From the IMG/VR virus record IMGVR_UViG_2529292922_000010: a stretch of 64,000 nt of DNA; one strand, given 5' to 3'. The notes under the pieces were generated by a model, which saw nothing but the letters and a program-made list of their open reading frames with translations, had not been told where the DNA came from and did not search any database. This stretch comes from a virus (lineage: Duplodnaviria > Heunggongvirae > Uroviricota > Caudoviricetes). The translations under genes and the position numbers were made by a program. This document shows positions 4,373 through 54,679 of the stretch, piece after piece (position 1 is the stretch's first letter; the number at the start of each line of letters is the position of its first letter).

Positions 4373-4633
4373 TCAGAGATCAGCTTTATGCAGAATTTTA
4401 TCCACCAGCGATGTGATTTTTTCTGCCAGGTCATCATTACTTACCCAATCCTGGCGGGCAGCCAGAACGGGCGACAAGGCTAATATTAACTCTCGTCGTA
4501 ATGATACGTTCCTTGCTACAGGCGGAATACGTGGTGCTGGTGGTGGTTTAAGCCCCTCGCTCCCTTGTATTTCTGGAGTATTCGGCTGATAGCCATTAGT
4601 TATTTTCGGCGGTATTGGACGAGGACGAAACAT
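4373..4633 (-). CDS. Pro-rich small protein, 86 aa
   Basis: ATG at 4633 with AGGAGG RBS 7 nt upstream; the longer track ORF (to 4753) lacks an RBS. Confidence 0.45.
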   Translation of the reverse strand: MFRPRPIPPKITNGYQPNTPEIQGSEGLKPPPAPRIPPVARNVSLRRELILALSPVLAARQDWVSNDDLAEKITSLVDKILHKADL

Positions 4634-4637
4634 CGCG

Positions 4638-4934
4638 CTACCTCCTACACTCAGGGCAGGTGTTCCCTTCCGCAAAGTAGGGGAAACTGCTATCAAGTTC
4701 ATCACACCATCTGCGATGCTCGTAGCACCAAAAAGCCTCCCACGGTAAACCAAAAGACTTCATCCACCGGGACACTCGATCTGGTATATCTGCTGGTGGC
4801 AGTTCTTCTGGCAATAATTTGCCTGATAATTCCCTTTCCGCCCGCGCCAGCATTCCTTTTAGACTCGCATTCTCTTTTTCAAGAATCTCTATGCGCGCCT
4901 GTAACTCAGCTTTCGTTGGCATGGCCCGCCTCAT
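4638..4934 (-). CDS. Hypothetical coiled-coil protein with C-terminal Cys cluster
   Basis: ELQARIEILEKENASLKGMLARAERE segment plus C...C...CPEC; start ambiguous (4922, 4934 or 5003). Confidence 0.4.
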   Translation of the reverse strand: MRRAMPTKAELQARIEILEKENASLKGMLARAERELSGKLLPEELPPADIPDRVSRWMKSFGLPWEAFWCYEHRRWCDELDSSFPYFAEGNTCPECRR

Positions 4935-5556
4935 GCTTATCAGCCACCAGCGGCAATAAAGCCCTGGCCATCTTATGAACCAATAGTGCATCAATAATGC
5001 CAAGCGTATGCCCCGGCTTAATGTTTAATGCCGCCTCAAGGTGACACCTTTCCAGGCCACTTTTCTCGGCTTGTTTATGATGATCTGGCGTAATAACGTC
5101 GCCCAAAACACGGCTAATTTTTTCTCGTAATTGCTGGGTGCCAGCACACTTGATCGCTGTATCGTGGATGCGGTTAACCAGTTCGCGATAAACATGCGGC
5201 TTAATTCGGATACGTTCACCGGTGACGCCCTTTCCTGGCGCTGGCACCGAACTATCCGGAATATCCGGATAGTTGCCAGCCTCGTAAGCTACCCGCAGCC
5301 AGTGCATGAATGTTTCAGTGGACACACAACCGCAGTCCACATCGATTTTCGCGCGTTGCTGTTCCAGCCACTGCTCAAAATTCAATCTACACGTATTACT
5401 TTCATGTTGCTCTTTTTGTCTCAAGGCCAGCATCTGCTGGGCTATTTCCAATACTTCATCTGCCGTATATCCAGCACCGTGACCATACATTTCGATACGG
5501 GAAATAATCTCTGATATACGCTCTTCAGTGATTCTGGTCATTTCTTTTTGCGCCAT
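4906..5556 (-). CDS. Hypothetical protein, 216 aa
   Basis: Long ORF; short overlaps with both neighbours indicate operon; no recognisable motif. Confidence 0.5.
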   Translation of the reverse strand: MAQKEMTRITEERISEIISRIEMYGHGAGYTADEVLEIAQQMLALRQKEQHESNTCRLNFEQWLEQQRAKIDVDCGCVSTETFMHWLRVAYEAGNYPDIPDSSVPAPGKGVTGERIRIKPHVYRELVNRIHDTAIKCAGTQQLREKISRVLGDVITPDHHKQAEKSGLERCHLEAALNIKPGHTLGIIDALLVHKMARALLPLVADKHEAGHANES

Positions 5557-24217: not shown

Positions 24218-24293
24218 TGGTGGCCCCTACCGGACTTGAACCGGTGACCGTGCGATTATGAGTCGCCAGCTCTAACCACTGAGCTAAAGGGCC
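24218..24293 (-). tRNA. tRNA-Ile (anticodon CAU, lysidine type); Met reading not excluded
   Basis: 76-nt cloverleaf ending CCA, anticodon loop CUCAUAA; very similar in form to E. coli ileX. Confidence 0.75.
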
Positions 24294-24320
24294 GGATTAC
24301 TGCCAATTTTGCTTACGCTT

Positions 24321-25148
24321 TTATTTCACCGGAACAAACGGAACAGCGGTATTACTGGTCATATACTGCGGTAATGTACCGTTCCATTTGTTGATCGCTT
24401 CCAACTCCATAACACCGGGGTTCTGGCGCAGAGCTTCACCACGTAAACGAATGGCATCAGCTTCGGCCTGGGCTTTTGTGCGAATAGCATCAGCCTGTCC
24501 GGCAGCTTCCGCGCGCAGCATGTTGGCCTCTGCTTCACGTTGTTTGACCTCTTGCTCGCGTTGCAGGGTTTTTTGGTTTGCCGTGACTTTGGCGTTAATA
24601 CTGTCAATAACTGTTGGCGGGTATTCTGGCTTACCTACATAAGAGAGGCTCATCACCTGAATGCCGATTGGCGTCATTTCTTCCTGAATGTCTTTAAGGG
24701 CTGCATCAAGCAATTCGGATTTGCCACCGTCGATAAATTTGTCGGTTGTCATTTTGCTGGCTAACCGGTTCAGAGCATCTGCAACCTTCTGGCGTAGATC
24801 GGTATCAGTAATATCATCTACACCTTTGCGATAGGTCTGAAATACCGTTGTGACTTTTGCTGGATCAACCTTGTAGGCTACGCCGATGTGGTAACCAATG
24901 GTTGTTCCGTCGCTCATCTGGAAGCTGAACGGCTCATCGTATGTCTTCATTTGCTTAAAGGTCGGGAAGATATAAACTTCAGTATTCAAGCCTGTCCAGT
25001 AGCGACCAACGCCAACTACTTCACCGATACCTTTATCATCCCCCAGCTTATTTACTTTGATCCCTACGTTACCTGGCTCTACCCGATCGCATCCGGTCAG
25101 ACATAAAGAACCCAAAATAATCGCTGCACTAATCAACGTTTTTTTCAT
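24321..25148 (-). CDS. plp: SPFH/band-7-like lipoprotein, 275 aa
   Basis: Signal peptide with lipobox LTGC; C-terminal coiled coil. Confidence 0.7.
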   Translation of the reverse strand: MKKTLISAAIILGSLCLTGCDRVEPGNVGIKVNKLGDDKGIGEVVGVGRYWTGLNTEVYIFPTFKQMKTYDEPFSFQMSDGTTIGYHIGVAYKVDPAKVTTVFQTYRKGVDDITDTDLRQKVADALNRLASKMTTDKFIDGGKSELLDAALKDIQEEMTPIGIQVMSLSYVGKPEYPPTVIDSINAKVTANQKTLQREQEVKQREAEANMLRAEAAGQADAIRTKAQAEADAIRLRGEALRQNPGVMELEAINKWNGTLPQYMTSNTAVPFVPVK

Positions 25149-25365
25149 TAATTAATTTCCTGGTTTTTTCACGAAAAAAGACTACTGCGAAAGCTGGGTA
25201 AATGAGCGCGAGAAGGACTCCCAACAATACAAGTATTGTGCTGTTAGATGAGATCATATTTGGCAAAAGCCAAACATACAGAACCAGTGACACAATCAAA
25301 CAGAGGACGGCATAAATATATAACCGCACCCATAGCGTTCGACATTTGTTCGGATTGTTCTGCAT
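25129..25365 (-). CDS. upl: Small two-TM membrane protein, 78 aa
   Basis: Overlaps plp start; position of P1 upl. Confidence 0.55.
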   Translation of the reverse strand: MQNNPNKCRTLWVRLYIYAVLCLIVSLVLYVWLLPNMISSNSTILVLLGVLLALIYPAFAVVFFREKTRKLINEKNVD

Positions 25366-25507
25366 CCTCTCACTCCATTATTTAACGAATAAAAAAGCTG
25401 CGGTGCTGGGTGCCTCCCGGTGTCCTTTGGCTGGTTATCCACCGTGGACGGGGAAACAAGGAGAAATGAATGGACTGATATAACCATTTCCCCGCGTGCG
25501 CTTAGCT

Positions 25508-25596
25508 GCATTCACCGCAACGGAAAGAGCATTCTTGGTGGACCTGTAGATTGGGATATGAACCCGTTACAGGAGAATGCTCTTACCTGTTACGTG
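25508..25596 (-). repeat. tRNA-linked hairpin element E1
   Basis: 13-bp outer stem enclosing GUAACGGGUUCAUAUCCCAAUCUAC core (T-arm-like); ends in CTTACCTGTTACGTG. Confidence 0.5.
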
Positions 25597-25768
25597 CTCC
25601 GTTTCGTGGAGCTAACGGCGGGTGATCGGGCCGCACCAGACTGGACTTATTTCAGCGTTATGCTCATGCCAGAGAATCAAACTGTGATGGTCGGTGCTGA
25701 ACTCCGACACAGGGTTGTAGCAAGCCCCGCAAAGCGCGCACTACTGTAGTTGCGGCACATCAGCCTGT

Positions 25769-25873
25769 GCATTCACCACAATGTTGAGAACACTGGTTGT
25801 CACGCTGCAACGCAACATTTATTCGTAGATTGGGATATGACCCCGTTACGCCAGTGTTCTCAACGTTGTAGTG
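25769..25873 (-). repeat. tRNA-linked hairpin element E2
   Basis: Different 14-bp outer stem (TTGAGAACACTGG/CCAGTGTTCTCAA) around the same core as E1. Confidence 0.5.
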
Positions 25874-26003
25874 CCGGTTACGGTTCCGGCCAGGCCTCTT
25901 CCTCAACGGGGTGTTCTCCATACGGACTACCGTTTATTGGTCGTTCCTGCGGTTTATGTTGTGAAGCCAGATGCTTATCTTCTGGTTGCTTCAAAGAGCT
26001 GCA

Positions 26004-26085
26004 CTTCATCACAACGGTAAGAGCACTCGATGCATTTAAGCCAAGCCCCATAAGGGAGAATGCCCTTACCTGTTGTGTTGTGATG
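26004..26085 (-). repeat. tRNA-linked hairpin element E3
   Basis: CATCACAACGGTAAG...CTTACCTGTTGTGTTGTGATG stem; different loop, no T-arm core. Confidence 0.45.
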
Positions 26086-26197
26086 ACCGGTGCTGATCTC
26101 CGGCTTGCGGTTATTTCAGACTCTCACGGGCGTTTAATTGCCCCGCCGAACAGCTCTTTTCCGCAATAGCTGCAATGTCTTTCGCGCATCAGCCTGC

Positions 26198-26292
26198 GCA
26201 TTCATCACAACGGTAAGGGTACTTCGTAGGGATTCGAACCCTCTGCCAAGCTCGGCGATCTCCGACGTCGCAAAATACCCTTACCTGTTGTG
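26198..26292 (-). repeat. tRNA-linked hairpin element E4 (tRNA-like, non-canonical)
   Basis: 10-bp stem GGTAAGGGTA/TACCCTTACC around AGGGTTCGAATCCCT (canonical T-loop); abuts 3' end of tRNA-Thr; does not fold as full cloverleaf. Confidence 0.5.
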
Positions 26293-26293
26293 C

Positions 26294-26369
26294 TGGTGCC
26301 GATTAACGGACTCGAACCGCTGACATCCTGCTTACAAGGCAGGCGCTCTACCAACTGAGCTAAACCGGC
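26294..26369 (-). tRNA. tRNA-Thr (anticodon UGU)
   Basis: 76 nt, canonical acceptor/D/T arms, ends CCA. Confidence 0.8.
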
Positions 26370-26371
26370 AT

Positions 26372-26447
26372 TGGCGATGGTGGATGGATTTGAACCATCG
26401 ACCCGTTGATTAACAGTCAACCGCTCTAACCGCTGAGCTACACCATC
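26372..26447 (-). tRNA. tRNA-Asn (anticodon GUU)
   Basis: 76 nt, 7-bp acceptor stem, ends CCA; 2 nt upstream of tRNA-Thr. Confidence 0.8.
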
Positions 26448-32616: not shown

Positions 32617-33009
32617 ATGTCTGATAAAGTAACAGTAAAGCAAACTATCAACAAAGCGACTTCAATCTACAAAATTGAGCACATCACTGTTGGCAAGCCA
32701 GGATCTGAACAATACCGTCATGCTTTCGAGCTTGCCGCTCAGCTTGGTTTAAAACACCCGGATTGCATTGAGCATGTATTTCCGACCTATGCTGATGAGC
32801 AATGTACTCATGTTCTTACCGAAGAGGATTTTTTCAGCACTGAAGAACGAGAAGGCGTTGATCGCTGCATTGGTGTGATTTGCTCTTCAGTGAGTTATGA
32901 GTTATTCCCTAATGTCCATGAAAATGGTGGTATTGGATACCAATTCCTGTACGAAGGCGATGAGCTTAAATGTTATGAACATGGTCTTCTTATCGAAAGC
33001 GTAGAATAA
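32617..33009 (+). CDS. Hypothetical protein, 130 aa
   Basis: ORF with RBS. Confidence 0.5.
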   Translation: MSDKVTVKQTINKATSIYKIEHITVGKPGSEQYRHAFELAAQLGLKHPDCIEHVFPTYADEQCTHVLTEEDFFSTEEREGVDRCIGVICSSVSYELFPNVHENGGIGYQFLYEGDELKCYEHGLLIESVE

Positions 33010-33022
33010 TACCCTTCCTTCC

Positions 33023-33047
33023 AACCGGCTATGTTGGCCGGTTTATT
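33023..33047 (+). terminator. Rho-independent terminator-like hairpin
   Basis: AACCGGC-loop-GCCGGTT then TTTATT. Confidence 0.5.
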
Positions 33048-33051
33048 CAAC

Positions 33052-33060
33052 TTATCCACA
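33052..33060 (+). promoter_or_regulatory. DnaA box at plasmid origin
   Basis: TTATCCACA, exact consensus. Confidence 0.65.
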
Positions 33061-33065
33061 GCATA

Positions 33066-33159
33066 GATCCAATAAACAGATCCCAAAGAGAACCTAGGAA
33101 GATCCAAAGAAGATCCCGGATCGCTGTAAGCCGCGCCGTTCATGGCCTGAAACGGGATC
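33066..33159. promoter_or_regulatory. Cluster of five GATC (Dam) sites at origin
   Basis: GATC at 33066, 33079, 33101, 33112, 33156, mostly in AGATCC context. Confidence 0.6.
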
Positions 33160-33163
33160 AACA

Positions 33164-33268
33164 TTGACTATACGCGATTTTATGTTGACTGTGTGCGATT
33201 TTATGTTGACTGCACGCGATTTATTGTTGACTATACGCGACAGAAACGTTGACTGTACGCGATTTTAG
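33164..33268 (+). promoter_or_regulatory. Five direct 21-bp iterons upstream of repA (incC-like)
   Basis: TTGACTRYRYGCGA at 33164, 33185, 33206, 33227, 33249. Confidence 0.75.
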
Positions 33269-33343
33269 AGCCTGAATATTCACAGCTGTTGATAACAGTC
33301 ATCTAAATTAACGCCAGGCCGCGCCACACATGGAGAAACCACG

Positions 33344-34228
33344 ATGCCGGAAGAAAGTAAAGGCTTCCTTAGCGTTGAAGAAGTTGCAGGAAATACAGGA
33401 GAAATCCACAGCCTGAAGCCCAATAACAACAGCACTATACAACCTATCGCTTTGTTGCGCTTAGGTGTGTTTGTGCCAACCTTAAAATCTACCAATGTGG
33501 CACTACGTCGCGGATCGTCAGTTACTACAAACACAACGAACGCAACCGAAGAACTATCAAGCCTTAAAATTGTTGAGCAGGAAGGCTATGAGGGAATTGA
33601 AATTCATGGCCCACGCCTGGATATGGATACTGATTTTAAGGTGTGGGTGGGCATAACCTCCGCGTTGTTTGACTACGCACCTGATGATGACGGCATAATC
33701 ACCCTGCCATTCTCCGAGTTTGCCGATCGATGCGGCTATCCACGTAAGCGCCTTTCAAAGGCGTTCCGTAAAAGTATTGATGACTCTCTGACACGCATTC
33801 AGCAGACAGTTGTCAAATTCCGCTTCCCGGCGGCAAAAGGTCATCTCAATAACATTAACGTCAACTTGTTGGCATATAGCAGCCTGAATACCGAGCTTGA
33901 TGTTATCGAGATCCAGCCGCAGAAACAGCTATCTGAACTTTACTATGTTGACTATAAGCGAATCCTGAAGCTGAAGATGCTGGATAAGCTCGGGCGCAAA
34001 GAGACGGCCAAGGTACTGTATACATTCTTTGAGGCTCTACCCGCCAACCCGGCACCTGTCAGCATTGAGCGCCTTAGAGCAAGGCTTAATCTCAAATCAT
34101 CCGTTAGCGTGCAAAATAGCGTTATCAGAAAAGCCATGAAAGATTTGGAAGCTATTGAATATCTTAAATTTTCAGAGATAAAAAACGGCAGGAAAATCGG
34201 CTTCCAGATCCATAAGCGCAATCCATAA
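33344..34228 (+). CDS. repA: Iteron-binding replication initiator
   Basis: 294 aa; flanked by direct iterons upstream and bidirectional iterons downstream; GGAGAAA RBS. Confidence 0.8.
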   Translation: MPEESKGFLSVEEVAGNTGEIHSLKPNNNSTIQPIALLRLGVFVPTLKSTNVALRRGSSVTTNTTNATEELSSLKIVEQEGYEGIEIHGPRLDMDTDFKVWVGITSALFDYAPDDDGIITLPFSEFADRCGYPRKRLSKAFRKSIDDSLTRIQQTVVKFRFPAAKGHLNNINVNLLAYSSLNTELDVIEIQPQKQLSELYYVDYKRILKLKMLDKLGRKETAKVLYTFFEALPANPAPVSIERLRARLNLKSSVSVQNSVIRKAMKDLEAIEYLKFSEIKNGRKIGFQIHKRNP

Positions 34229-34230
34229 TA

Positions 34231-34495
34231 TTGACTATATGCGATAGCGAGAAGTTGACTATAGGCGACATTCGTTGACGCTGGTGGATTTTTGCTGGCG
34301 TCAATATTCTGCAAGTCGCTATTGAGATGGCTTTTAGGGTCATTTCATCGCGTATAGTCAACGTTTCTCCCGACAATATCTTACATAGTCGATCTTTGGT
34401 GGAGTTAAATCGACTACAGTCAACTTTTGACTGTAGTCACATCGCGCATAGTCAACTATTCACATTAACTTTCGCGTATAGTCAACATTTGCGCG
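34231..34495. promoter_or_regulatory. Downstream iteron array, both orientations (incA-like copy control)
   Basis: At least 7 copies of TTGACTRTAGKCGA at 34231, 34255, 34348(rev), 34410(rev), 34427, 34443(rev), 34482(rev). Confidence 0.7.
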
Positions 34496-34520
34496 GTTCT
34501 CATCAAGCAGTGGTATTGAT

Positions 34521-35330
34521 ATGCAAGAAGAGAAACAACACTACCTCTACGTTCTGGTGCCGGAGAATGGAGATACTTTTAAAATCGGCATTTCATGTGG
34601 TCCATTGGCACGGTTTAAAGGGCTACAAGTGAGTCCCGATTTTGCGCTTTCACGGGTCTATCGTGGTACGCGTTTGGCAATAGTTAATCTTGAGCGGGCT
34701 TTACACGCAACCTTTTTCCCCTGGAATGCGCCGTGGGAGAAAAGCGCTGGTGGCGGGCATACTGAATGGTTTACACGAGAGTGTCTTGATAAGGTTTTGG
34801 CTCATATCGAATATCTAAATGATATGTGGGGAGGGATTCTCGAGCGCATTAAGTCGAATGATTTACTTCAGCGTCCAGTAGATGCTGCCCGCTCTTTCGA
34901 AAAAGAGCTGGATGTTACTTCTATCGTGACTTTCAAAGATGACGCAGGAATGAGGGACGTGGCTTATGTCTCCATATCTGGCTATGAACCGGACGCGATC
35001 CGCGCTCAATGTGAATTGCTGAAAGCAATGTTTATGCTTCGGACTAAATATTCCTGGGAGACAAGGCGGGTGTGCTTCCCTATGGAAGAGTTAACCGCCA
35101 CCATTGATTCCCAGCTTTACCACGATAATCCAGAGAAGTTTTTTAGCCTTTTAGCCGGTAATGGGCTTAACTGTGTGTCCGGGCTGGGGCGAAGTAGAAT
35201 CCAACATGCCTCGCTCTTCGGTCCCTTCTTTTACGATCGACACGGGTACTTTGAGGCTGAACTTCCGGCGCTTACGCGTGCCATAGATACTATCGATTTC
35301 GAACGATTATTCGCTGCTCTTAGCAAATAA
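34521..35330 (+). CDS. GIY-YIG-like (T5orf172-type) domain protein, 269 aa
   Basis: N-terminal YLYVLVPENGDTFKIGIS...EWF; own terminator; sits between iteron array and parA promoter. Confidence 0.5.
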   Translation: MQEEKQHYLYVLVPENGDTFKIGISCGPLARFKGLQVSPDFALSRVYRGTRLAIVNLERALHATFFPWNAPWEKSAGGGHTEWFTRECLDKVLAHIEYLNDMWGGILERIKSNDLLQRPVDAARSFEKELDVTSIVTFKDDAGMRDVAYVSISGYEPDAIRAQCELLKAMFMLRTKYSWETRRVCFPMEELTATIDSQLYHDNPEKFFSLLAGNGLNCVSGLGRSRIQHASLFGPFFYDRHGYFEAELPALTRAIDTIDFERLFAALSK

Positions 35331-35337
35331 CACTGAT

Positions 35338-35358
35338 GCCCCTGAACGGGGCTTTTTT
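35338..35358 (+). terminator. Rho-independent terminator
   Basis: GCCCC-TGAAC-GGGGC followed by T6. Confidence 0.7.
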
Positions 35359-35445
35359 GTGCCCTCCTTGTAACTCTCAATCGTGCAAAATGAACCAAAC
35401 ATGCAGAGAATGCTATGTACAAGCATCTGTGCATACATTATTATT

Positions 35446-35498: not shown

Positions 35499-36695
35499 AT
35501 GAGTGATTCCAGCCAGCTTCACAAGGTTGCTCAAAGAGCAAACAGAATGCTCAATGTTCTGACTGAACAAGTACAGTTGCAAAAGGATGAGCTACACGCG
35601 AACGAGTTTTACCAGGTCTATGCGAAAGCGGCACTGGCAAAATTGCCTCTACTGACTCGAGCGAACGTTGACTATGCCGTGAGTGAAATGGAAGAAAAGG
35701 GTTATGTTTTCGATAAACGCCCTGCTGGCTCTTCAATGAAATATGCGATGTCAATTCAGAACATCATTGACATATATGAACATCGCGGAGTGCCAAAATA
35801 CCGGGATCGCTACAGCGAAGCGTATGTGATTTTCATCTCCAATCTTAAAGGCGGTGTGTCAAAAACTGTATCGACGGTTTCTCTGGCGCATGCAATGCGT
35901 GCTCACCCTCATCTTCTGATGGAAGATTTAAGGATTCTGGTTATTGACCTTGATCCGCAATCTTCAGCAACGATGTTTTTAAGCCATAAACACTCTATTG
36001 GTATCGTAAACGCAACATCTGCACAGGCTATGTTGCAGAATGTAAGCCGTGAAGAGCTGTTAGAGGAGTTTATTGTTCCTTCTGTTGTACCTGGGGTTGA
36101 CGTTATGCCTGCGTCGATTGACGATGCCTTTATTGCATCCGATTGGAGAGAGCTGTGCAATGAGCATCTACCGGGTCAAAACATCCATGCAGTCCTGAAA
36201 GAAAATGTGATTGATAAGCTGAAGAGCGATTATGACTTTATCCTCGTTGATAGTGGTCCTCACCTTGACGCCTTCCTGAAAAATGCTTTGGCCTCGGCCA
36301 ATATACTGTTTACACCTCTGCCGCCTGCAACGGTTGATTTCCACTCATCGCTTAAATACGTTGCCCGCCTTCCTGAGTTGGTAAAACTCATTTCGGATGA
36401 AGGCTGCGAGTGCCAGCTTGCGACTAACATTGGTTTTATGTCCAAGTTGAGTAACAAGGCAGACCATAAGTATTGCCATAGCCTGGCTAAAGAAGTGTTC
36501 GGTGGGGATATGCTTGATGTCGTCCTCCCTCGCCTTGACGGTTTTGAACGCTGCGGCGAGTCTTTTGACACTGTTATTTCAGCTAACCCGGCAACGTATG
36601 TTGGTAGTGCTGATGCATTGAAGAACGCGCGAATTGCCGCGGAAGATTTTGCTAAAGCAGTTTTTGACCGTATTGAATTTATCAGATCTAACTGA
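35499..36695 (+). CDS. parA: Type Ia partition ATPase ParA
   Basis: 398 aa (P1 ParA length); Walker A KGGVSKT; long N-terminal HTH extension. Confidence 0.9.
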   Translation: MSDSSQLHKVAQRANRMLNVLTEQVQLQKDELHANEFYQVYAKAALAKLPLLTRANVDYAVSEMEEKGYVFDKRPAGSSMKYAMSIQNIIDIYEHRGVPKYRDRYSEAYVIFISNLKGGVSKTVSTVSLAHAMRAHPHLLMEDLRILVIDLDPQSSATMFLSHKHSIGIVNATSAQAMLQNVSREELLEEFIVPSVVPGVDVMPASIDDAFIASDWRELCNEHLPGQNIHAVLKENVIDKLKSDYDFILVDSGPHLDAFLKNALASANILFTPLPPATVDFHSSLKYVARLPELVKLISDEGCECQLATNIGFMSKLSNKADHKYCHSLAKEVFGGDMLDVVLPRLDGFERCGESFDTVISANPATYVGSADALKNARIAAEDFAKAVFDRIEFIRSN

Positions 36696-36711
36696 GGAGT
36701 AAGAAACCCCC

Positions 36712-37713
36712 ATGTCAAAGAAAAACAGACCAACAATTGGGCGAACCCTTAATCCTTCAATATTAAGCGGATTTGATAGTTCTTCAGCCTCTGGCGATCG
36801 AGTCGAGCAGGTATTCAAGTTATCAACTGGTCGCCAGGCCACATTTATTGAAGAGGTAATACCTCCGAACCAGGTAGAAAGCGATACCTTTGTTGATCAG
36901 CATAACAACGGGCGTGACCAGGCATCTCTTACGCCAAAATCATTAAAAAGTATCCGAAGCACTATTAAGCATCAGCAATTTTACCCTGCAATAGGTGTTA
37001 GACGGGCTACAGGGAAAATTGAAATTTTGGATGGTTCCCGGCGTCGAGCTTCTGCCATCTTAGAGAACGTAGGGTTGCGGGTTTTAGTCACGGACCAGGA
37101 GATCAGCGTTCAGGAAGCGCAAAATTTAGCGAAAGACGTTCAGACAGCATTGCAGCACAGCATTCGAGAAATAGGTCTGCGTTTGATGCGAATGAAAAAT
37201 GATGGGATGAGTCAGAAGGATATTGCAGCCAAAGAAGGGCTGTCTCAGGCGAAGGTCACGCGTGCTCTCCAGGCAGCGAGTGCTCCGGAAGAATTAGTTG
37301 CCCTTTTCCCTGTGCAGTCGGAATTAACCTTTTCGGACTACAAAACGCTTTGTGCTGTTGGCGACGAAATGGGGAACAAGAATTTAGAGTTTGATCAGCT
37401 TATTCAAAACATATCCCCGGAAATAAACGACATCTTATCCATTGAAGAAATGGCCGAAGATGAAGTTAAAAATAAAATCCTGCGCTTGATAACAAAGGAA
37501 GCCTCACTACTCACGGATAAAGGTTCTAAAGATAAGTCCGTAGTTACTGAATTATGGAAATTTGAGGACAAGGATCGCTTTGCAAGGAAGCGCGTGAAAG
37601 GCCGTGCATTTTCTTATGAGTTTAATCGACTTTCAAAAGAGCTACAGGAAGAACTCGACAGGATGATTGGGCATATCCTTAGAAAGAGCCTCGATAAAAA
37701 GCCGAAGCCTTAA
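36712..37713 (+). CDS. parB: Partition protein ParB
   Basis: 333 aa (P1 ParB length); parS follows. Confidence 0.9.
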   Translation: MSKKNRPTIGRTLNPSILSGFDSSSASGDRVEQVFKLSTGRQATFIEEVIPPNQVESDTFVDQHNNGRDQASLTPKSLKSIRSTIKHQQFYPAIGVRRATGKIEILDGSRRRASAILENVGLRVLVTDQEISVQEAQNLAKDVQTALQHSIREIGLRLMRMKNDGMSQKDIAAKEGLSQAKVTRALQAASAPEELVALFPVQSELTFSDYKTLCAVGDEMGNKNLEFDQLIQNISPEINDILSIEEMAEDEVKNKILRLITKEASLLTDKGSKDKSVVTELWKFEDKDRFARKRVKGRAFSYEFNRLSKELQEELDRMIGHILRKSLDKKPKP

Positions 37714-37717
37714 ACTT

Positions 37718-37801
37718 TCGCCATTCAAATTTCACTATTAACCTACTGTTTTTAAAGTAAATCCATCTAAAATTTCAAGGTGAAATCGCCACGATTTCAC
37801 C
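37718..37801. promoter_or_regulatory. parS partition site
   Basis: Box B TCGCCA (37718, 37786) and box A ATTTCAC/GTGAAAT (37729, 37780, 37794) flanking an AT-rich spacer. Confidence 0.75.
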
Positions 37802-43374: not shown

Positions 43375-43530
43375 TTACCTTTCAGATTCGTAGGCTGTGA
43401 AGACAGTGACCTCCGTCTGGCCGGTTCGGATTCGTACCTCGCAGAGGTCTTTCCTCGTTACCAGTGCCGTCACAATGACGGTTAAACAGATGACGATCAG
43501 AGCGATTAACATCGCTTTTTGCTGCTTCAT
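43375..43530 (-). CDS. hok: Hok/Gef-family type I toxin
   Basis: 51 aa MKQQKAMLIALIVICLTVIVTALVTRKDLCEVRIRTGQTEVTVFTAYESER; AAGGAG RBS; overlapping mok-like frame 43382..43588. Confidence 0.85.
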   Translation of the reverse strand: MKQQKAMLIALIVICLTVIVTALVTRKDLCEVRIRTGQTEVTVFTAYESER

Positions 43531-43711
43531 AGCCTGCTTCTCCTTGACCTTTTGGTCGGTAAGAGGCTAATCTACGTATGCTAAGCATAGATGTGGCCTC
43601 AGATTAATGTTAAGCGTCTTGCAGGACGCGTAATGTTATCTGGGGCTTTCTTCTATCTGCTTTTCGGGTAATGCCTGAAGCAGATAGCCTCAAGCACCCG
43701 CAACGATTGTA

Positions 43712-47103: not shown

Positions 47104-47417
47104 AGTTACGGCCTCACAATCAGGTTTAACAACCTGCTACCCGCTGCTAAACAGGTGGCAGGACGTGACGGGGTTAGCAGACTGGCGATTGTGAAACCAG
47201 CAGGCCGAAGCCTCCCCATCACGCCCCACCATAATTTGGGCGTAACGCGGTTTTACGGACACAAAAATACCGCAATATCGGATATCTGCGGCTGTCCGCA
47301 CAATCATTCAGGCTGCTAAACCCGGTCGCAGAATTTGCTACGACGGCGGAACTATAAGCCTGAACGATTAAAAGGTCAATATGATGCGAAAAGATAGCAT
47401 TCGCGACTTAAAAATAC

Positions 47418-50930: not shown

Positions 50931-53900
50931 ATGGAAAGAAAAAACGCCAACATTGACGATGTGATAAGGACGGTTGAAACCGCCAGCGCAAAAGAGCTGG
51001 AAGAGCTTGCAGGTATTCGGGAAGCCGTTGAAGATTTGAAAGGTGGGCGAGTTGCTACAGTTGATCCTGTCTCTCGCAGTGTGTCGGCATTAAATCGCAC
51101 AATCGAAAATTCCCGGCCAGACTTTGTGGCCAATGCGCCATCAGTGGACCCTATTGTTGAGGCAATGAAACGGCTTAATTTAGGGGACGTTTCTCGTGTA
51201 GTTCAGGAGGATGTTGCTCTACAGGAACCGCAGGCCAAATCAACTACGCGAAAGGGTAAAAAACGACGCAAGAAGGCTATAACAGAAGATGTAAAGGCGC
51301 AACGGACCGAAGCAGCCGAACACGCTCGCGAAATGTTCGGTCAAAAAGGCGGTGCGCAAAAAAGCCAAAACCAACGCGATGCGCGTGGTCGTTTTATTGG
51401 AAAGTCAGGGAGTAAGGCCGCAGCGGAAGATGCCCGTGCTGAACGTGCTGAAAAGGCCAGGCGCAAAGAGGATGATGAGCGTCTAAATGCTGAATCAGGT
51501 TTATTAAAAAAACTGTCAAAAGTAGCTGAAGGCATAGGTAACCCTTCAGAGACTCGTGCCGTCGATGCGTTAGGTTATGCCGTTGCTGGTCCATTGTGGG
51601 CAGCAGGGAAGGAGCTTGGCGGGATATCAAAAGAAGTTGGTGGATCGCTTAATGGTGCCAGAAAGTCTATTGCCGATGTGATTCGTGGCAATGACGATAA
51701 CAGCCGTAGAAAAGGTTTTTTTAGGCGTAAATCGCAAAATAGTGCCGATGTCGTTCAGGTTAACACCCAAAAACGGACGGTTCAGGAACTTCAGGAGCAG
51801 ACCAGCGAAATTAAAGAGGGCAATGACAAGATTCTCCGCGCCCTTGATCAGATAGCCAAAAACACCGGGAAAAAGAAGGGCGGCTTGCTGTCCAAACTAT
51901 TTAGCCTGTTAGGGAAGGGGGCCGGTGGCGTCGCGTCGTTGTTAATGGGGCGTGGCATGCTGAAAAAAGCTGGAGCACTCGCTTTTGGCGCTCTGGGGGC
52001 AAAGAAACTTGTAGGAATGCTACGCGGTGGTGGCAAGAAGACTCTCGCCCATGAAGGCGGAGATTTGGCTGCCCGGGCAGCAGGTAAACTTGGATTAAAG
52101 GCAGTTGGTAAAGGGGCGTTACGCGCAATTCCCCTAGTCGGCACAGTGGCTGGAGGTATTTATGATGCGGTAACCGGTTGGAATGATACAGAAGCGCAAC
52201 GTCGAGCGTTTGGGCTTAAATCAGGACAAGATCCATCATTCCAGCAAAAAGCCGCTTATACGTTAGCTAATGTTCTTGATATGGGGGGACTGGTATCTGG
52301 TATTAGCAGCGCCATTGGTGAGGTTCTCAAATCACTTGGATTTGAGGATATCGGCAATATGTTGCAATCATTTTCGACGGAAAGTATTGCCCAGGCCATT
52401 GATAGTGGGATTACCAACTTAGAAACATATATTTCTAACCTTGGCGACACCATTTCTACCAAGTTCGATGATTACACAGCAAAGATTGGTGATGCTGTTT
52501 CAGCATGGTTTAGCGATACATCTAATAAGCTGCTTGAAAAGCTGGATGCCATCAAAGACTTCTTTACTGTCGATAACCTGAAACAGGTTTTCAGTGATGC
52601 AATTGATAGTGCAATTGATTTCATTAAGAACCCAGGGAAACATATTAAAGAGGCGGCTGGTAATATTTGGGATGGGGTTAAAAATTTCCCCGGTAAAGCA
52701 TTAGATGCAGCGGTTGATGCCGTTAAAAATACCCCTGCGGCAATGATTGTATCAAAAATACCCAATCCGATCGGCGAGGCTAATGCGAAAGAAATCACTC
52801 CAGAGTTAAAAGCTCCGGTTAATAGCCACCAGGAGACATCTGATTCTAAAACTGAATCCGATGCCAAACAGACTAATATTGTTACCCGCGTGATAAATGC
52901 GGCACTGGACACGGCGAAAGATAGCAATAAAACAGTTAAAGAAACTGCTAATCAGATTATCAATGCAAATGCCGTAGAAACGGGCAATAGCGCGTTGCAG
53001 AAAATTGATAAAGCTATTGGTCAAAATAGCTCGTCATCATCGTCGCTTAATACCACTGGCACCAGGAATGACATTCAGAAAGCTGCGGATACCTACAACA
53101 ATGGCAACTTGGATGTAAAAGTCGGAAGTCTTGGCGCTGAAGGTAAGGCAAATCTCGATAAGTTGGCTCCGTATTTTGCCGAACTAGAGAATAAATACGG
53201 TCTTCCAGAAGGCACTCTTTACGCGATTGCTGCAACTGAATCTGGTGGTAATCCGTATGCAAAATCCCAAACCGGTGCTCTGGGGATGTTTCAGTTCACG
53301 GGGATTGCTCGTGAAGAGACTGGCTTAGCTGAAGGTGAATCGTTTGATCCTGTGAAATCGGCAGAAGCTGCGGCTCTTCTCATGAGCAAATATCTGAAGC
53401 AAGCCAATGGAGACTTAAACGAGGCCATCACTGCATATAATGCTGGGTTTGGCACTATCAATAAGTGGAAAAAAGGCACAGGTGACTTATCGAAAGAAAA
53501 CCGTGAGTACGCGATCAAGGTCAATACTCATCGTGCTCGCTATTTAGGTGGTGAAATCTATACACCTGGAGCAGGAGCACAGGGTGGGGCGCAATATGGA
53601 GTGAGGGGACCACTGCCTGATAACGCTGTTATCGATCAGTCTACTGGCCTGGCGTTTACCCCTGGTGATAGCCCGTTTGAGAAAGGCGGTCTGGTAGACA
53701 AAATTGGCAATGCTGTTGGCGTTAACGATCTGGTCAACAAATTCATGAATGGCCGGGGTATGCGTCGGGAAGTCGTTCAGGGAACGCTCGAAGAACGTGC
53801 ACGAGGGAAGGGGACCGCAACAGCAGCTGGCAATGTGTATGTTGATACTCCGATGCCAGTTGAAGAGGCGCGTCCGGTGGCCAGCAACTCAAGTTACTTT

Positions 53901-54323
53901 GACCAACTCGGCGCACAAATGGGGATTGATGGACTATTTGATAAACTCCGCAACTCGCCGGGGATGCGGAAAAATAATGCGCCTGAACCAGCCTCCACGT
54001 CCCAGGTGACGACTGCCGCCAACGATTTGCAGCAACCAACCGGTCGTATGCAGATAGACGGACAGGTTATTAGTGACCTTGGCGGCTCCGGTGCCAAGCC
54101 GACAATGCAGTTGGCTGATAATACCGTTTCACTTGATGGTGAAACGAAGCGGCTGTTTGCGCAGATGACCTCATTGCTTGCCAGGATTGAAGAGCACACT
54201 AAAGACTCGGCGAAAGGCCAGGGAACTGTCGTAAAGGTCAGCACGCCTCAACCGGGCGTTATGCGCACGGTGCCACTGTCAATTGATGATCCGTTGATGA
54301 ATGACTACGCGAGAGTTGATTGA
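50931..54323 (+). CDS. sit: Sit-like tape-measure / injection transglycosylase
   Basis: 1130 aa; internal lytic transglycosylase motif (AIAATESGGNPYA...GALGMFQF...YNAG). Confidence 0.8.
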   Translation: MERKNANIDDVIRTVETASAKELEELAGIREAVEDLKGGRVATVDPVSRSVSALNRTIENSRPDFVANAPSVDPIVEAMKRLNLGDVSRVVQEDVALQEPQAKSTTRKGKKRRKKAITEDVKAQRTEAAEHAREMFGQKGGAQKSQNQRDARGRFIGKSGSKAAAEDARAERAEKARRKEDDERLNAESGLLKKLSKVAEGIGNPSETRAVDALGYAVAGPLWAAGKELGGISKEVGGSLNGARKSIADVIRGNDDNSRRKGFFRRKSQNSADVVQVNTQKRTVQELQEQTSEIKEGNDKILRALDQIAKNTGKKKGGLLSKLFSLLGKGAGGVASLLMGRGMLKKAGALAFGALGAKKLVGMLRGGGKKTLAHEGGDLAARAAGKLGLKAVGKGALRAIPLVGTVAGGIYDAVTGWNDTEAQRRAFGLKSGQDPSFQQKAAYTLANVLDMGGLVSGISSAIGEVLKSLGFEDIGNMLQSFSTESIAQAIDSGITNLETYISNLGDTISTKFDDYTAKIGDAVSAWFSDTSNKLLEKLDAIKDFFTVDNLKQVFSDAIDSAIDFIKNPGKHIKEAAGNIWDGVKNFPGKALDAAVDAVKNTPAAMIVSKIPNPIGEANAKEITPELKAPVNSHQETSDSKTESDAKQTNIVTRVINAALDTAKDSNKTVKETANQIINANAVETGNSALQKIDKAIGQNSSSSSSLNTTGTRNDIQKAADTYNNGNLDVKVGSLGAEGKANLDKLAPYFAELENKYGLPEGTLYAIAATESGGNPYAKSQTGALGMFQFTGIAREETGLAEGESFDPVKSAEAAALLMSKYLKQANGDLNEAITAYNAGFGTINKWKKGTGDLSKENREYAIKVNTHRARYLGGEIYTPGAGAQGGAQYGVRGPLPDNAVIDQSTGLAFTPGDSPFEKGGLVDKIGNAVGVNDLVNKFMNGRGMRREVVQGTLEERARGKGTATAAGNVYVDTPMPVEEARPVASNSSYFDQLGAQMGIDGLFDKLRNSPGMRKNNAPEPASTSQVTTAANDLQQPTGRMQIDGQVISDLGGSGAKPTMQLADNTVSLDGETKRLFAQMTSLLARIEEHTKDSAKGQGTVVKVSTPQPGVMRTVPLSIDDPLMNDYARVD

Positions 54324-54679
54324 TGGCCAACAATAACGAAATTGATCCTTTGCTGACGCTGGAGTTATCCGGCGTAAAAACGTATGAGTCCCAGGAGGAG
54401 GCCTGGGGCGCTCGTTTATATGAGTGGCTAAACACTTATCAGGGTGAGGTATACGGAGATCCGTCATGGGGCAATGTTTTACCGCAGTTTAAACACGAAC
54501 CGACCAACTTGTCGCATGTTCAAATTGCGGTTGAGGCAATGCTTTTGCAAAAACTGACGGTAGATTTACCCGACATACCGATTTCTGGCTTGTCAGTAGC
54601 CGAGGGAGATGCTTTTGATAAGTTGAAAATATCCATTCGTATCAGGGATATAACTATCACACAGGACGTGGTGCTATGA
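54320..54679 (+). CDS. Baseplate wedge gp25/gpW-like protein, 119 aa
   Basis: Size and position right after tape measure; start overlaps sit stop. Confidence 0.5.
   Translation: MMANNNEIDPLLTLELSGVKTYESQEEAWGARLYEWLNTYQGEVYGDPSWGNVLPQFKHEPTNLSHVQIAVEAMLLQKLTVDLPDIPISGLSVAEGDAFDKLKISIRIRDITITQDVVL

Follow-up and report, generated by a model that had tools for sequence, protein, structure and literature searches.

A P1-like phage-plasmid very probably carries a p0111-type replicon in place of the IncY replicon of P1

The 64,000-nucleotide stretch of viral DNA that was analyzed here in full (the window) belongs to a P1-like phage-plasmid whose plasmid-prophage replicon is very probably of the p0111 type rather than of the IncY type of P1. 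In PlasmidFinder-style typing, a replicon type is assigned at a nucleotide identity of at least 95% over most of the rep gene. Compared with the full rep gene of pO111_2 (NC_013370.1, positions 53598 to 54482; NC_013370 is the RefSeq copy of AP010962), the repA gene is identical at 876 of 885 nucleotides (98.98%) without gaps, the encoded proteins share 292 of 294 amino acids, and the gene is carried on a P1-like phage-plasmid backbone. The comparison with other P1-like replicons that the original prediction had called for points to p0111 through this match, AP010962.1 (pO111_2) being the named p0111 rep reference (PMC11165635). Phage RCS47 encodes the same RepA (100% identity), and SJ46 and JL22 encode versions at 99.7% identity. 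JL22 was described as having repA'(p0111) plus gp57 in place of repA(IncY) (PMC9603915), and the p0111 variant has been catalogued as a replicon type of P1-like phage-plasmids (PMC9603915, PMC11165635). The replicon is therefore real but ordinary and is not new, because its repA is almost identical to that of pO111_2 and its type is already catalogued. p0111 is a sequence-typing label rather than an Inc group in the classical sense; P1-like phage-plasmids, in which it is one of two types of replicon found, are tracked because of the ESBL and mcr genes they carry. A search of the genome contig with RepA found a single locus with an identical copy. No description of the p0111 iterons or of its full origin anatomy was found in the literature searched, and writing them out here is a modest descriptive addition. 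The features of the replicon and of the region downstream are as follows.

33043 to 34485: origin region overall, with DnaA box, GATC cluster, iterons, repA, and downstream array
33043 to 33060, + strand: tandem DnaA boxes bordering the origin on its outer side, a degenerate TTATTCAAC (33043 to 33051) and an exact TTATCCACA (33052 to 33060)
33064 to 33123: relatively AT-rich heptamer block with five GATC (Dam) sites, four in AGATCC and one in GGATCG, aligning with the Dam sites of P1 and P7
33124 to 33163: GC-rich spacer beginning GCCGCGCC; the sixth GATC, at 33156, adjoins the first iteron
33161 to 33267, + strand: equivalent of incC, five direct iterons with a unit of about 21 bp, AYGTTGACTRYRYGCGATTTT
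33276 to 33295: two sites matching the DnaA box at 8 of 9 positions in the gap between the iterons and repA, ATATTCACA (+ strand, 33276 to 33284) and TTATCAACA (- strand, 33287 to 33295)
33344 to 34228, + strand: repA, 294 amino acids, predicted iteron-binding initiator, with a GGAG ribosome-binding site at 33332 to 33335
33948 to 33961, + strand: intragenic iteron TTGACTATAAGCGA with one mismatch, within repA at the codons for V-D-Y-K-R
34229 to 34490, both orientations: equivalent of incA, an iteron array
34521 to 35330, + strand: ORF269, encoding 269 amino acids with an N-terminal T5orf172/GIY-YIG-like domain, in the swapped module and absent from P1
35338 to 35352: terminator-like hairpin after ORF269
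35499 to 36695, + strand: parA, P1 type, outside the swapped module, 397 of 398 residues identical to P1 (AF234172)
36712 to 37713, + strand: parB, P1 type, outside the swapped module, 333 of 333 residues identical to P1 (AF234172)
37718 to 37800, + strand: parS centromere, the incB determinant of P1, with boxB TCGCCA and boxA ATTTCAC, aligned to the parS of P1 and P7

The exact DnaA box, the five GATC sites in AGATCC-type heptamers, and the five direct iterons at 21-bp spacing upstream of repA, all of which had been predicted from the sequence, are present. In alignments, the tandem DnaA boxes fall on the DnaA site annotated in P1 and P7, and the exact box is kept in a D6-like relative, the E. 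coli contig DABKFZ010000018 (L007; CP085065 and its relatives are grouped with it). Three exact boxes occur in the window against 2.5 expected, and since single boxes are thus at the chance level, it is by positional homology only that the DnaA boxes are assigned. The same holds for the two DnaA-like sites between the iterons and repA, which on their own are not above chance; at the aligned position of the one on the minus strand, the D6-like relative has an exact TTATCCACA. The heptamer block has AGATCC at 33066, 33079, 33101, and 33112 and GGATCG at 33119, and its five GATC within 60 nucleotides constitute the highest GATC density in the window. Its GC content is 41.8%, compared with 47.7% overall, and that of the spacer reaches 61.8% over positions 33130 to 33163. 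The spacer sequence GCCGCGCC is common to P1, P7, and the D6-like relative.

The 14-bp cores of the upstream iterons, which are exact copies of TTGACTRYRYGCGA on the + strand, begin at 33164, 33185, 33206, 33227, and 33249, so that successive cores lie 21, 21, 21, and 22 bp apart. Allowing up to two mismatches, TTGACTRYRYGCGA occurs 14 times in the window against 5.15 expected, a count reached by none of 100 shuffles, and 12 of the 14 matches fall between 33164 and 34485. Downstream of repA there are six copies at this stringency, two forward (34231 and 34255) and four reverse (34348, 34410, 34442, and 34472). A further reverse copy at 34379 has three mismatches but is in phase, giving the reverse set a spacing of 31, 31, 32, and 30 bp, and at 34276 the sequence TTGACGCTGGTGGA forms a third, degenerate forward site that the D6-like relative retains. 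The statement that at least seven bidirectional copies lie downstream is therefore fair only if weak copies are counted, because those with up to two mismatches number six. The downstream array also contains a perfect 12-bp palindrome, GACTACAGTCAA/TTGACTGTAGTC, at 34412 to 34438 and iteron half-site inverted repeats. There is some likeness between TTGACGCTGGTGGA and the right half of the iteron of P1 (GCTGGAGGGA), but reading the site as a relic was dropped as too weak. The iteron inside repA did not figure in the original prediction. The intragenic 14-mer is identical and at the same position in L007, in L012, and in pO111_2, and it sits in a run of 17 identical nucleotides shared with the D6-like relative although the two repA genes are only 75% identical.

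As judged from sequence alignment, the layout holds as a feature-for-feature match to the oriR/incC-repA-incA arrangement of P1, as had been predicted, and the predicted features align with those annotated in P1 and P7. The tandem DnaA boxes, the five GATC in heptamers, the GC-rich spacer, and the five iterons spaced by 21 bp are common to P1 and P7. The incC of P1 has five iterons with the number, spacing, and orientation seen here, and its incA has three forward and six reverse iterons, the reverse set being spaced by about 31 bp, so that six strong and two or three weak downstream copies here correspond to nine in P1. In addition, the replicon occupies the same genomic slot as in P1, between upfA and parA. 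The upstream iterons, the DnaA/GATC cluster, and the two-orientation downstream locus thus place it within the P1-type architecture. It differs from P1 in the iteron inside repA, in the extra ORF before parA, and in the heptamers, one of which is AGAACC where P1 has AGATCC, whereas another is AGATCC where P1 has AGGTCC. The iterons themselves are unrelated, TTGACTRYRYGCGA here and ATGTGTGCTGGAGGGAAA in P1, and the TTGACTRYRYGCGA-type iteron is absent from the rep/par region of P1.

The predicted RepA has a Pfam match to Rep3_C (27.3 bits, with a cut-off of 21.1) and a match to Rep3_N that is just below its cut-off (22.0 bits against 22.4), which, with the latter reservation, places it in the Rep3 family with tandem winged helices (Rep3_N/WH1 and Rep3_C/WH2). 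It is 42% identical to the RepA of P1 (E = 9e-71) and likewise 42% identical to that of P7, in agreement with the 42% identity to P1 RepA reported for SJ46 (PMC5241659). A sequence search of the PDB with RepA gave no match, and NCBIfam gave none for RepA, ORF269, or UpfA. Foldseek searches with the AlphaFold model, which has a moderate pLDDT of 70.8, found RctB, RepE, and the WH1 domain of the MSBI1.176 replication protein at E values of up to 0.001, followed by R6K pi, pPS10 RepA, and TrfA at E values of 0.0012 to 0.008. The top structural matches of the model are thus F RepE, R6K pi, pPS10 RepA, RK2 TrfA, and Vibrio RctB, although these solved initiators are only 10 to 15% identical to RepA in sequence, the domain orientation differs in the model, and the global TM-scores against solved structures are only 0.3 to 0.46. 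The model therefore supports the assignment of RepA as a probable tandem winged-helix iteron initiator. Upstream of repA, a consensus scan found no promoter on the + strand, and a relaxed sigma-70 scan gave best candidates with 8 or 9 of 12 matches, which are not convincing. TTGACT, with which the iteron core opens, matches the -35 hexamer at five of six positions; because no convincing repA promoter was found, autorepression through an overlap of iterons and promoter is an assumption.

The D6-like contig is a close relative, at 85% protein identity for RepA and 75% DNA identity for repA. It has the same iteron consensus, counts, spacings, downstream arrangement, and intragenic iteron, but its replicon is flanked by a transglycosylase gene and by tail genes, without ORF269 and without adjacent parAB. 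The RepFIB/IncFIB, SSU5, and Proteus Rep3-family replicons share the RepA family at identities of 44 to 53% and differ in iteron cores and in downstream architecture, the Proteus relative having eleven 43-bp tandem repeats. In this relative, too, iterons flank rep and one more lies within the gene. Whereas the relative with 85% RepA identity keeps both the iteron consensus and the layout, the relative with 53% identity keeps only the iteron ends, GTTGA...CGATTTT, and P1, with 42% identity, keeps nothing, which suggests that RepA and iterons co-vary. Within the p0111 type, pO111_2, RCS47, SJ46, and JL22 have matching iteron positions, ORF269 in the same place, and P1-type par genes throughout, and pO111_2 differs by point changes only, such as a few iteron bases and the splitting of ORF269 into two reading frames.

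Several other readings of this replicon were weighed. The original prediction was staked on RepA and iterons not being identical to those of P1 (IncY); on the contrary reading, the replicon is simply that of P1/P7. The shared layout, the 77% identity of the DnaA/GATC block to P1, and a blastn match to P1 that runs as far as 33137 would be in keeping with that, but RepA is only 42% identical, blastn has no match to P1 across 33138 to 35396, and the 19-bp P1 iteron ATGTGTGCTGGAGGGAAA has no match with up to three mismatches in the whole window. Neither the identity of RepA and repA to those of P1 (K02380/AF234172) nor the iterons thus place the replicon in IncY, and this refuted reading retains practically no probability. 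A borrowing of an IncFIB (RepFIB) or IncHI1B replicon from a conjugative plasmid is suggested by several GenBank records labeled "RepFIB replication protein A," by the MOB-suite typing of pS51_2 as IncHI1B, and by the membership of RepA in the same broad family as the RepFIB, SSU5, and P1 proteins. These labels are, however, family-level names and not type assignments. The PLSDB matches to RepA are at least 99% identical in 392 records, 80 to 99% identical in six, and below 60% identical in the rest; sampled IncFIB-like and Klebsiella proteins are 44 to 49% identical, and the nearest cluster beyond the clade in a large protein database is 53% identical. Judged by these plasmid RepA matches, the replicon belongs to neither type, and such a borrowing is highly improbable.

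Equally improbable is a previously unrecognized incompatibility group. In its favor, no relevant paper on p0111 and iterons was found in the literature searched, and p0111 carries no classical Inc designation; it is contradicted by the match to the pO111_2 rep gene and by typing practice, p0111 being part of the PlasmidFinder-based typing that several surveys use, and by the presence of the replicon in 404 PLSDB plasmids, in 415 of 5,426 complete E. coli genomes, and in RCS47, SJ46, and JL22. For the downstream array (34229 to 34490), a role as a second origin or as a regulatory site of ORF269, instead of as a copy-number locus, is somewhat less remote yet still quite unlikely. The incA of P1 lacks both the perfect palindrome and the half-site inverted repeats, and 30 bp separate the array from the start of ORF269, but the position of the array, its two or three forward and four or five reverse copies, and their phasing of about 31 bp mirror P1 incA, and the D6-like relative keeps the array although it has no ORF269.

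For the p0111-type replicon, beyond the observed anatomy, homologies, replicon type, and module boundaries, a mechanism can be inferred from homology with P1 for the binding of RepA, the firing of the origin, the control of copy number, and compatibility. RepA monomers would bind the five in-phase iterons beside the origin, host DnaA would bind the flanking box or boxes, and the two proteins would jointly open the adjacent, relatively AT-rich heptamer block, whose GATC (Dam) sites may couple initiation to the methylation state. RepA on the origin iterons would also repress repA, and the two-orientation downstream array would limit copy number by RepA titration and by handcuffing, that is, pairing with the origin iterons. 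Since RepA has diverged from its P1 counterpart together with the iterons, replication control should, on sequence grounds, be orthogonal to IncY. Among the 5,426 complete E. coli genomes, IncY and p0111 occur together in 2, against about 27.6 expected under independence. Because co-residence is rarer than expected, a different replicon is evidently not enough for IncY and p0111 elements to coexist, and the published suggestion that the two should be compatible in one host has to be qualified accordingly. It is conceivable, though rather doubtful, that the iteron inside repA (33948 to 33961) is a functional RepA-binding site, perhaps acting as a roadblock or as an additional pairing site for copy control, and, separately, that the swap from IncY to p0111 changes the specificity of replication control without natural coexistence of the two P1-like lineages; if true, the swap would serve something other than escape from P1 incompatibility. 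A similar intragenic iteron is found in the Proteus relative, and none is found in P1.

The module replaced in comparison with reference P1 spans approximately 33045 to 35396 and covers everything from the origin, which is replaced in full, through repA and the downstream array to ORF269. A left junction at 33137, where the blastn match ends, was rejected, and the junction is placed at about 33045, just past the upfA terminator hairpin, because the DnaA/GATC block is closer to the p0111-clade D6-like relative (93% identity) than to P1 (77%). Among phage records, ORF269 is confined to the 12 that also have this RepA, and PADLOC gave no matches for it or for UpfA. That ORF269, as a GIY-YIG-like homing nuclease, drove the module swap is speculation; it strictly co-occurs with RepA in the phage records, yet it is disrupted in pO111_2 and absent from the D6-like relative.

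The flanking genes dmt, rdgC/hrdC, upfB, ppfA, upfA, parA, parB, and gene 23 are 94 to 99% identical to those of P1. The window also holds a C4 antisense RNA and three tRNA genes. With these flanks and a RepA at 42% identity, the suggested variant incompatibility type on a P1-type backbone is borne out, with the qualification that the "type" is a sequence-typing label and that a P1-type parS is retained. A larger module that includes parA and parB was suggested by OP279344, a record labeled "P1" that carries P7-type par genes, and was rejected because the par genes here match reference P1 (AF234172). Identity to the P7 proteins is only 59% for ParA and 44% for ParB, and the PDB matches are 3ez2 for ParA and the P1 ParB structures 1zx4 and 2ntz for ParB. 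The parS boxes are identical to those of P1 and unlike those of P7, which places the partition system in the P1 type (incB). The P1-type partition genes and parS found here contradict a published statement that RCS47 and SJ46 have P7-type ParAB.

The origin-bearing region of the window is the already catalogued p0111 replicon and is not new. The 1.5-kb region is 97.4 to 99.2% identical in phages RCS47, SJ46, JL22, phi456, and others, and its RepA is 100% identical to that of RCS47 and 99.7% identical to those of SJ46 and JL22. The window repA matches the rep gene of plasmid pO111_2 (NC_013370, the RefSeq copy) at 876/885 nucleotides and 292/294 amino acids, with the same iteron map; the entry of this plasmid named as p0111 rep reference is AP010962.1 (PMC11165635). 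JL22 was described as having "repA' (p0111) and gp57 replacing repA (IncY)," and 55 P1-like elements comprised 24 p0111 versus 31 IncY types (PMC9603915). Along the phage-plasmid tree, 17 replicon-type switches were inferred (PMC11165635). In PLSDB, 404 plasmids have the 2.26-kb module, and in 391 the match is near full length. The p0111 RepA forms a tight clade in PLSDB (at least 99% identity in 392 plasmids, 80 to 99% in six) and in a large protein database, where the nearest cluster beyond the clade is from Proteus (53%) and others show 44 to 49%. More distant matches include RepFIB-like, SSU5-like, and P1 RepA proteins; the labels "RepFIB replication protein A" and "IncHI1B" (MOB-suite) were rejected as the type, being family-level names. 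The original prediction of a variant type on a P1-type backbone is supported, but this variant is already known as p0111. In the literature searched, the single paper containing both "p0111" and "iteron" concerned a subject other than the p0111 origin, and an explicit iteron map may serve as a useful, though routine, annotation.

The anatomy was obtained by direct reading of positions 32700 to 35000 and by motif scans, as follows.

33043-33051: degenerate DnaA box TTATTCAAC, directly 5' of the exact box
33052-33060: exact DnaA box TTATCCACA
33066, 33079, 33101, 33112: GATC of AGATCC sites
33119: GATC of a GGATCG site
33156: sixth GATC, in a GC-rich spacer (61.8% GC)
33164, 33185, 33206, 33227, 33249, plus strand: five upstream iterons, exact TTGACTRYRYGCGA
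33344-34228: repA ORF, 294 aa, preceded by GGAG
33948-33961: intragenic iteron TTGACTATAAGCGA, within the repA coding sequence
34231, 34255, plus strand: downstream TTGACTRYRYGCGA-type iterons, forward
34276, plus strand: degenerate forward site TTGACGCTGGTGGA
34348, 34410, 34442, 34472, minus strand: downstream TTGACTRYRYGCGA-type iterons, reverse
34379, minus strand: reverse copy with 3 mismatches, keeping the reverse set in 31/31/32/30-bp phase
34521-35330: ORF269, 269 aa, with an N-terminal T5orf172/GIY-YIG-like domain (phrog_2876)

The exact DnaA box is present as originally predicted. Three such boxes occur in the window versus 2.5 expected, which puts a lone box at chance level, and this one carries weight only because P1 and P7 have their annotated DnaA site at the aligned position. 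Five GATC sites within 60 nt, the highest density in the whole 64 kb, lie in a relatively AT-rich stretch (41.8% GC versus 47.7% window-wide); four are AGATCC and the fifth (33119) is GGATCG. The five direct upstream iterons were also found as described, at spacings of 21, 21, 21, and 22 bp, while of the "at least seven" downstream copies, six are clear and a seventh holds only if weak copies are counted. At up to 2 mismatches, TTGACTRYRYGCGA has 14 matches in the window versus 5.15 expected, a number reached in 0 of 100 shuffles, and 12 of the 14 lie within 33164-34485. The downstream array also contains an inverted pair of iteron half-sites (TTGACGCTGG...CTGGCGTCAA, 34276-34309) and a perfect 12-bp palindrome (GACTACAGTCAA/TTGACTGTAGTC, 34412-34438). 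The degenerate TTGACGCTGGTGGA is kept as TTGACGCTGGCGGA in L007, an Escherichia coli contig with a D6-like replicon, and the right half of the site is similar to GCTGGAGGGA, the core of the P1 iteron.

In alignments with the richly annotated P1 (AF234172) and P7 (AF503408) records, the predicted origin layout matches feature for feature, which bears out the P1-like architecture proposed earlier. The shared features are tandem DnaA boxes, six heptamer positions of which five have GATC (one position is shifted from one replicon to the other), the GCCGCGCC spacer, five 21-bp-spaced iterons followed by repA, and a downstream array with forward copies first and reverse copies last at ~31-bp spacing. 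In contrast, the P1 iteron ATGTGTGCTGGAGGGAAA is unrelated to TTGACTRYRYGCGA. The suspected difference in iteron sequence was confirmed: allowing up to 3 mismatches, the window contains no ATGTGTGCTGGAGGGAAA site, and the P1 rep/par region has no TTGACTRYRYGCGA site. The replicon is clearly not identical to P1 IncY, given these unrelated iterons and a RepA that is a distant homolog (42% identity, E = 9e-71).

The repA product is a Rep3-family initiator. It matches Pfam Rep3_C at 27.3 bits (cutoff, 21.1) and Rep3_N at 22.0 bits, just below the cutoff of 22.4, and is assigned to phrog_775 in PHROGs. For an AlphaFold model built from 34 homologs (pLDDT, 70.8), the Foldseek matches at an E value of ≤0.001 are iteron-initiator structures (RctB, RepE, and the MSBI1.176 WH1 domain), followed by R6K pi, pPS10 RepA, and TrfA just short of this threshold; global TM-scores against the solved structures are low (0.3 to 0.46). 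The longest identity run between the window and L007 repA genes (32 nt, 33611-33642) spans the invariant PRLDMDTDFK motif, and GATATGGATACTGATTT within it is also identical in P1 repA, though the two proteins are only 42% identical. The P7 RepA is identical to that of OP279344, a P1-labeled record. Autorepression of repA is only assumed, because no plus-strand site passes a consensus scan for the repA promoter and the relaxed-scan candidates are weak.

Comparisons with three relatives, whose RepA proteins are 85%, 53%, and 42% identical, support the view that RepA and the iterons may be a co-evolving specificity pair. In the 85% relative (L007), repA is 75% identical in nucleotides and codons for the same amino acid are identical in only 48% of cases; across the 24 pooled sites, TTGACT and GCGA never change, and only the central RYRY positions vary. 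In the Proteus relative (53%), only the iteron ends are kept (GTTGA...CGATTTT), and the P1 iteron (42%) shares nothing with TTGACTRYRYGCGA. The Proteus mirabilis locus (L009) has a control architecture very different from those of P1 and p0111, with eleven tandem 43-bp repeats directly 3' of rep (4831-5500), each with an iteron-like GTTGAAGCAAGACGATTT. The intragenic TTGACTATAAGCGA, absent from the original prediction, recurs as an identical 14-mer at the corresponding codons of L007, L012, and pO111_2, and lies inside a 17-nt identity run, the third longest between the window and L007 repA genes. The Proteus rep gene contains a perfect 19-nt iteron (4424-4442) at a different position and in the opposite orientation, and P1 repA contains no such copy. 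This conservation suggests that the intragenic iteron may be functional. By analogy with annotated P1 features and established iteron-plasmid knowledge, RepA monomers would bind the five in-phase iterons and DnaA the flanking box or boxes; the heptamer block would then be opened, its Dam sites tying initiation to methylation state, while copy number would be held down by the downstream array through titration and pairing with the origin iterons.

Homology to AF234172 extends to 33137 at 94% and resumes from 35397 at 99.2%. A left module limit at 33137 is misleading, since the DnaA/GATC block is closer to L007 (93%) than to P1 (77%), and the whole origin is therefore part of the incoming module. 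The left junction is placed at ~33045, just past the conserved upfA terminator hairpin, and the swapped module covers about 33045-35396. In L007, whose phage-plasmid backbone is different, the replicon is flanked by a transglycosylase gene and tail genes. ORF269, inside the module between the downstream iterons and parA, occurs among phage records only in the same 12 that have p0111 RepA; pO111_2 has it in split form, P1 and L007 lack it, and it has no PADLOC or NCBIfam matches. ParA (397/398) and ParB (333/333) match AF234172, and parS (boxB TCGCCA, boxA ATTTCAC) is P1 type and not P7 type (window 35499-37800). Replacement of parA and parB as well, as a comparison with OP279344 had implied, is ruled out, as OP279344 itself has P7-type par genes; parAB of this record ("P1 del res del mod") are 100% and 99.4% identical to those of AF503408. 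ParAB and parS of RCS47 and pO111_2 are likewise of the reference P1 type. A passage of PMC5241659 relays that ParAB of RCS47 and SJ46 are P7-like, a statement contradicted by the P1-type ParAB and parS.

Among 5,426 complete E. coli genomes, p0111 is present in 415 and IncY in 361, and a concatenated query matched 774 genomes and 777 records; therefore, only two genomes and no single record contain both. About 27.6 co-resident genomes would be expected under independence, population structure ignored, which argues that the two lineages, though their replicons differ, are kept apart by shared P1 functions. Immunity and the retained P1-type parS are candidates. Two copies of one type in a genome are just as rare (0 and 1). 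As expected of a P1-like genome, the window contains C4 antisense RNA and a1/b1 target sites of the immI immunity region (47151-47236 and 47305-47357, minus strand) and three tRNA genes (Met-CAT, Thr-TGT, and Asn-GTT; 24218-26447, minus strand). A full-length sok antitoxin RNA (43525-43699, minus strand; Rfam, 114.8 bits) implies that this P1-like element has a toxin-antitoxin locus of the hok/sok type, and hokD is annotated in a comparable region of pO111_2.
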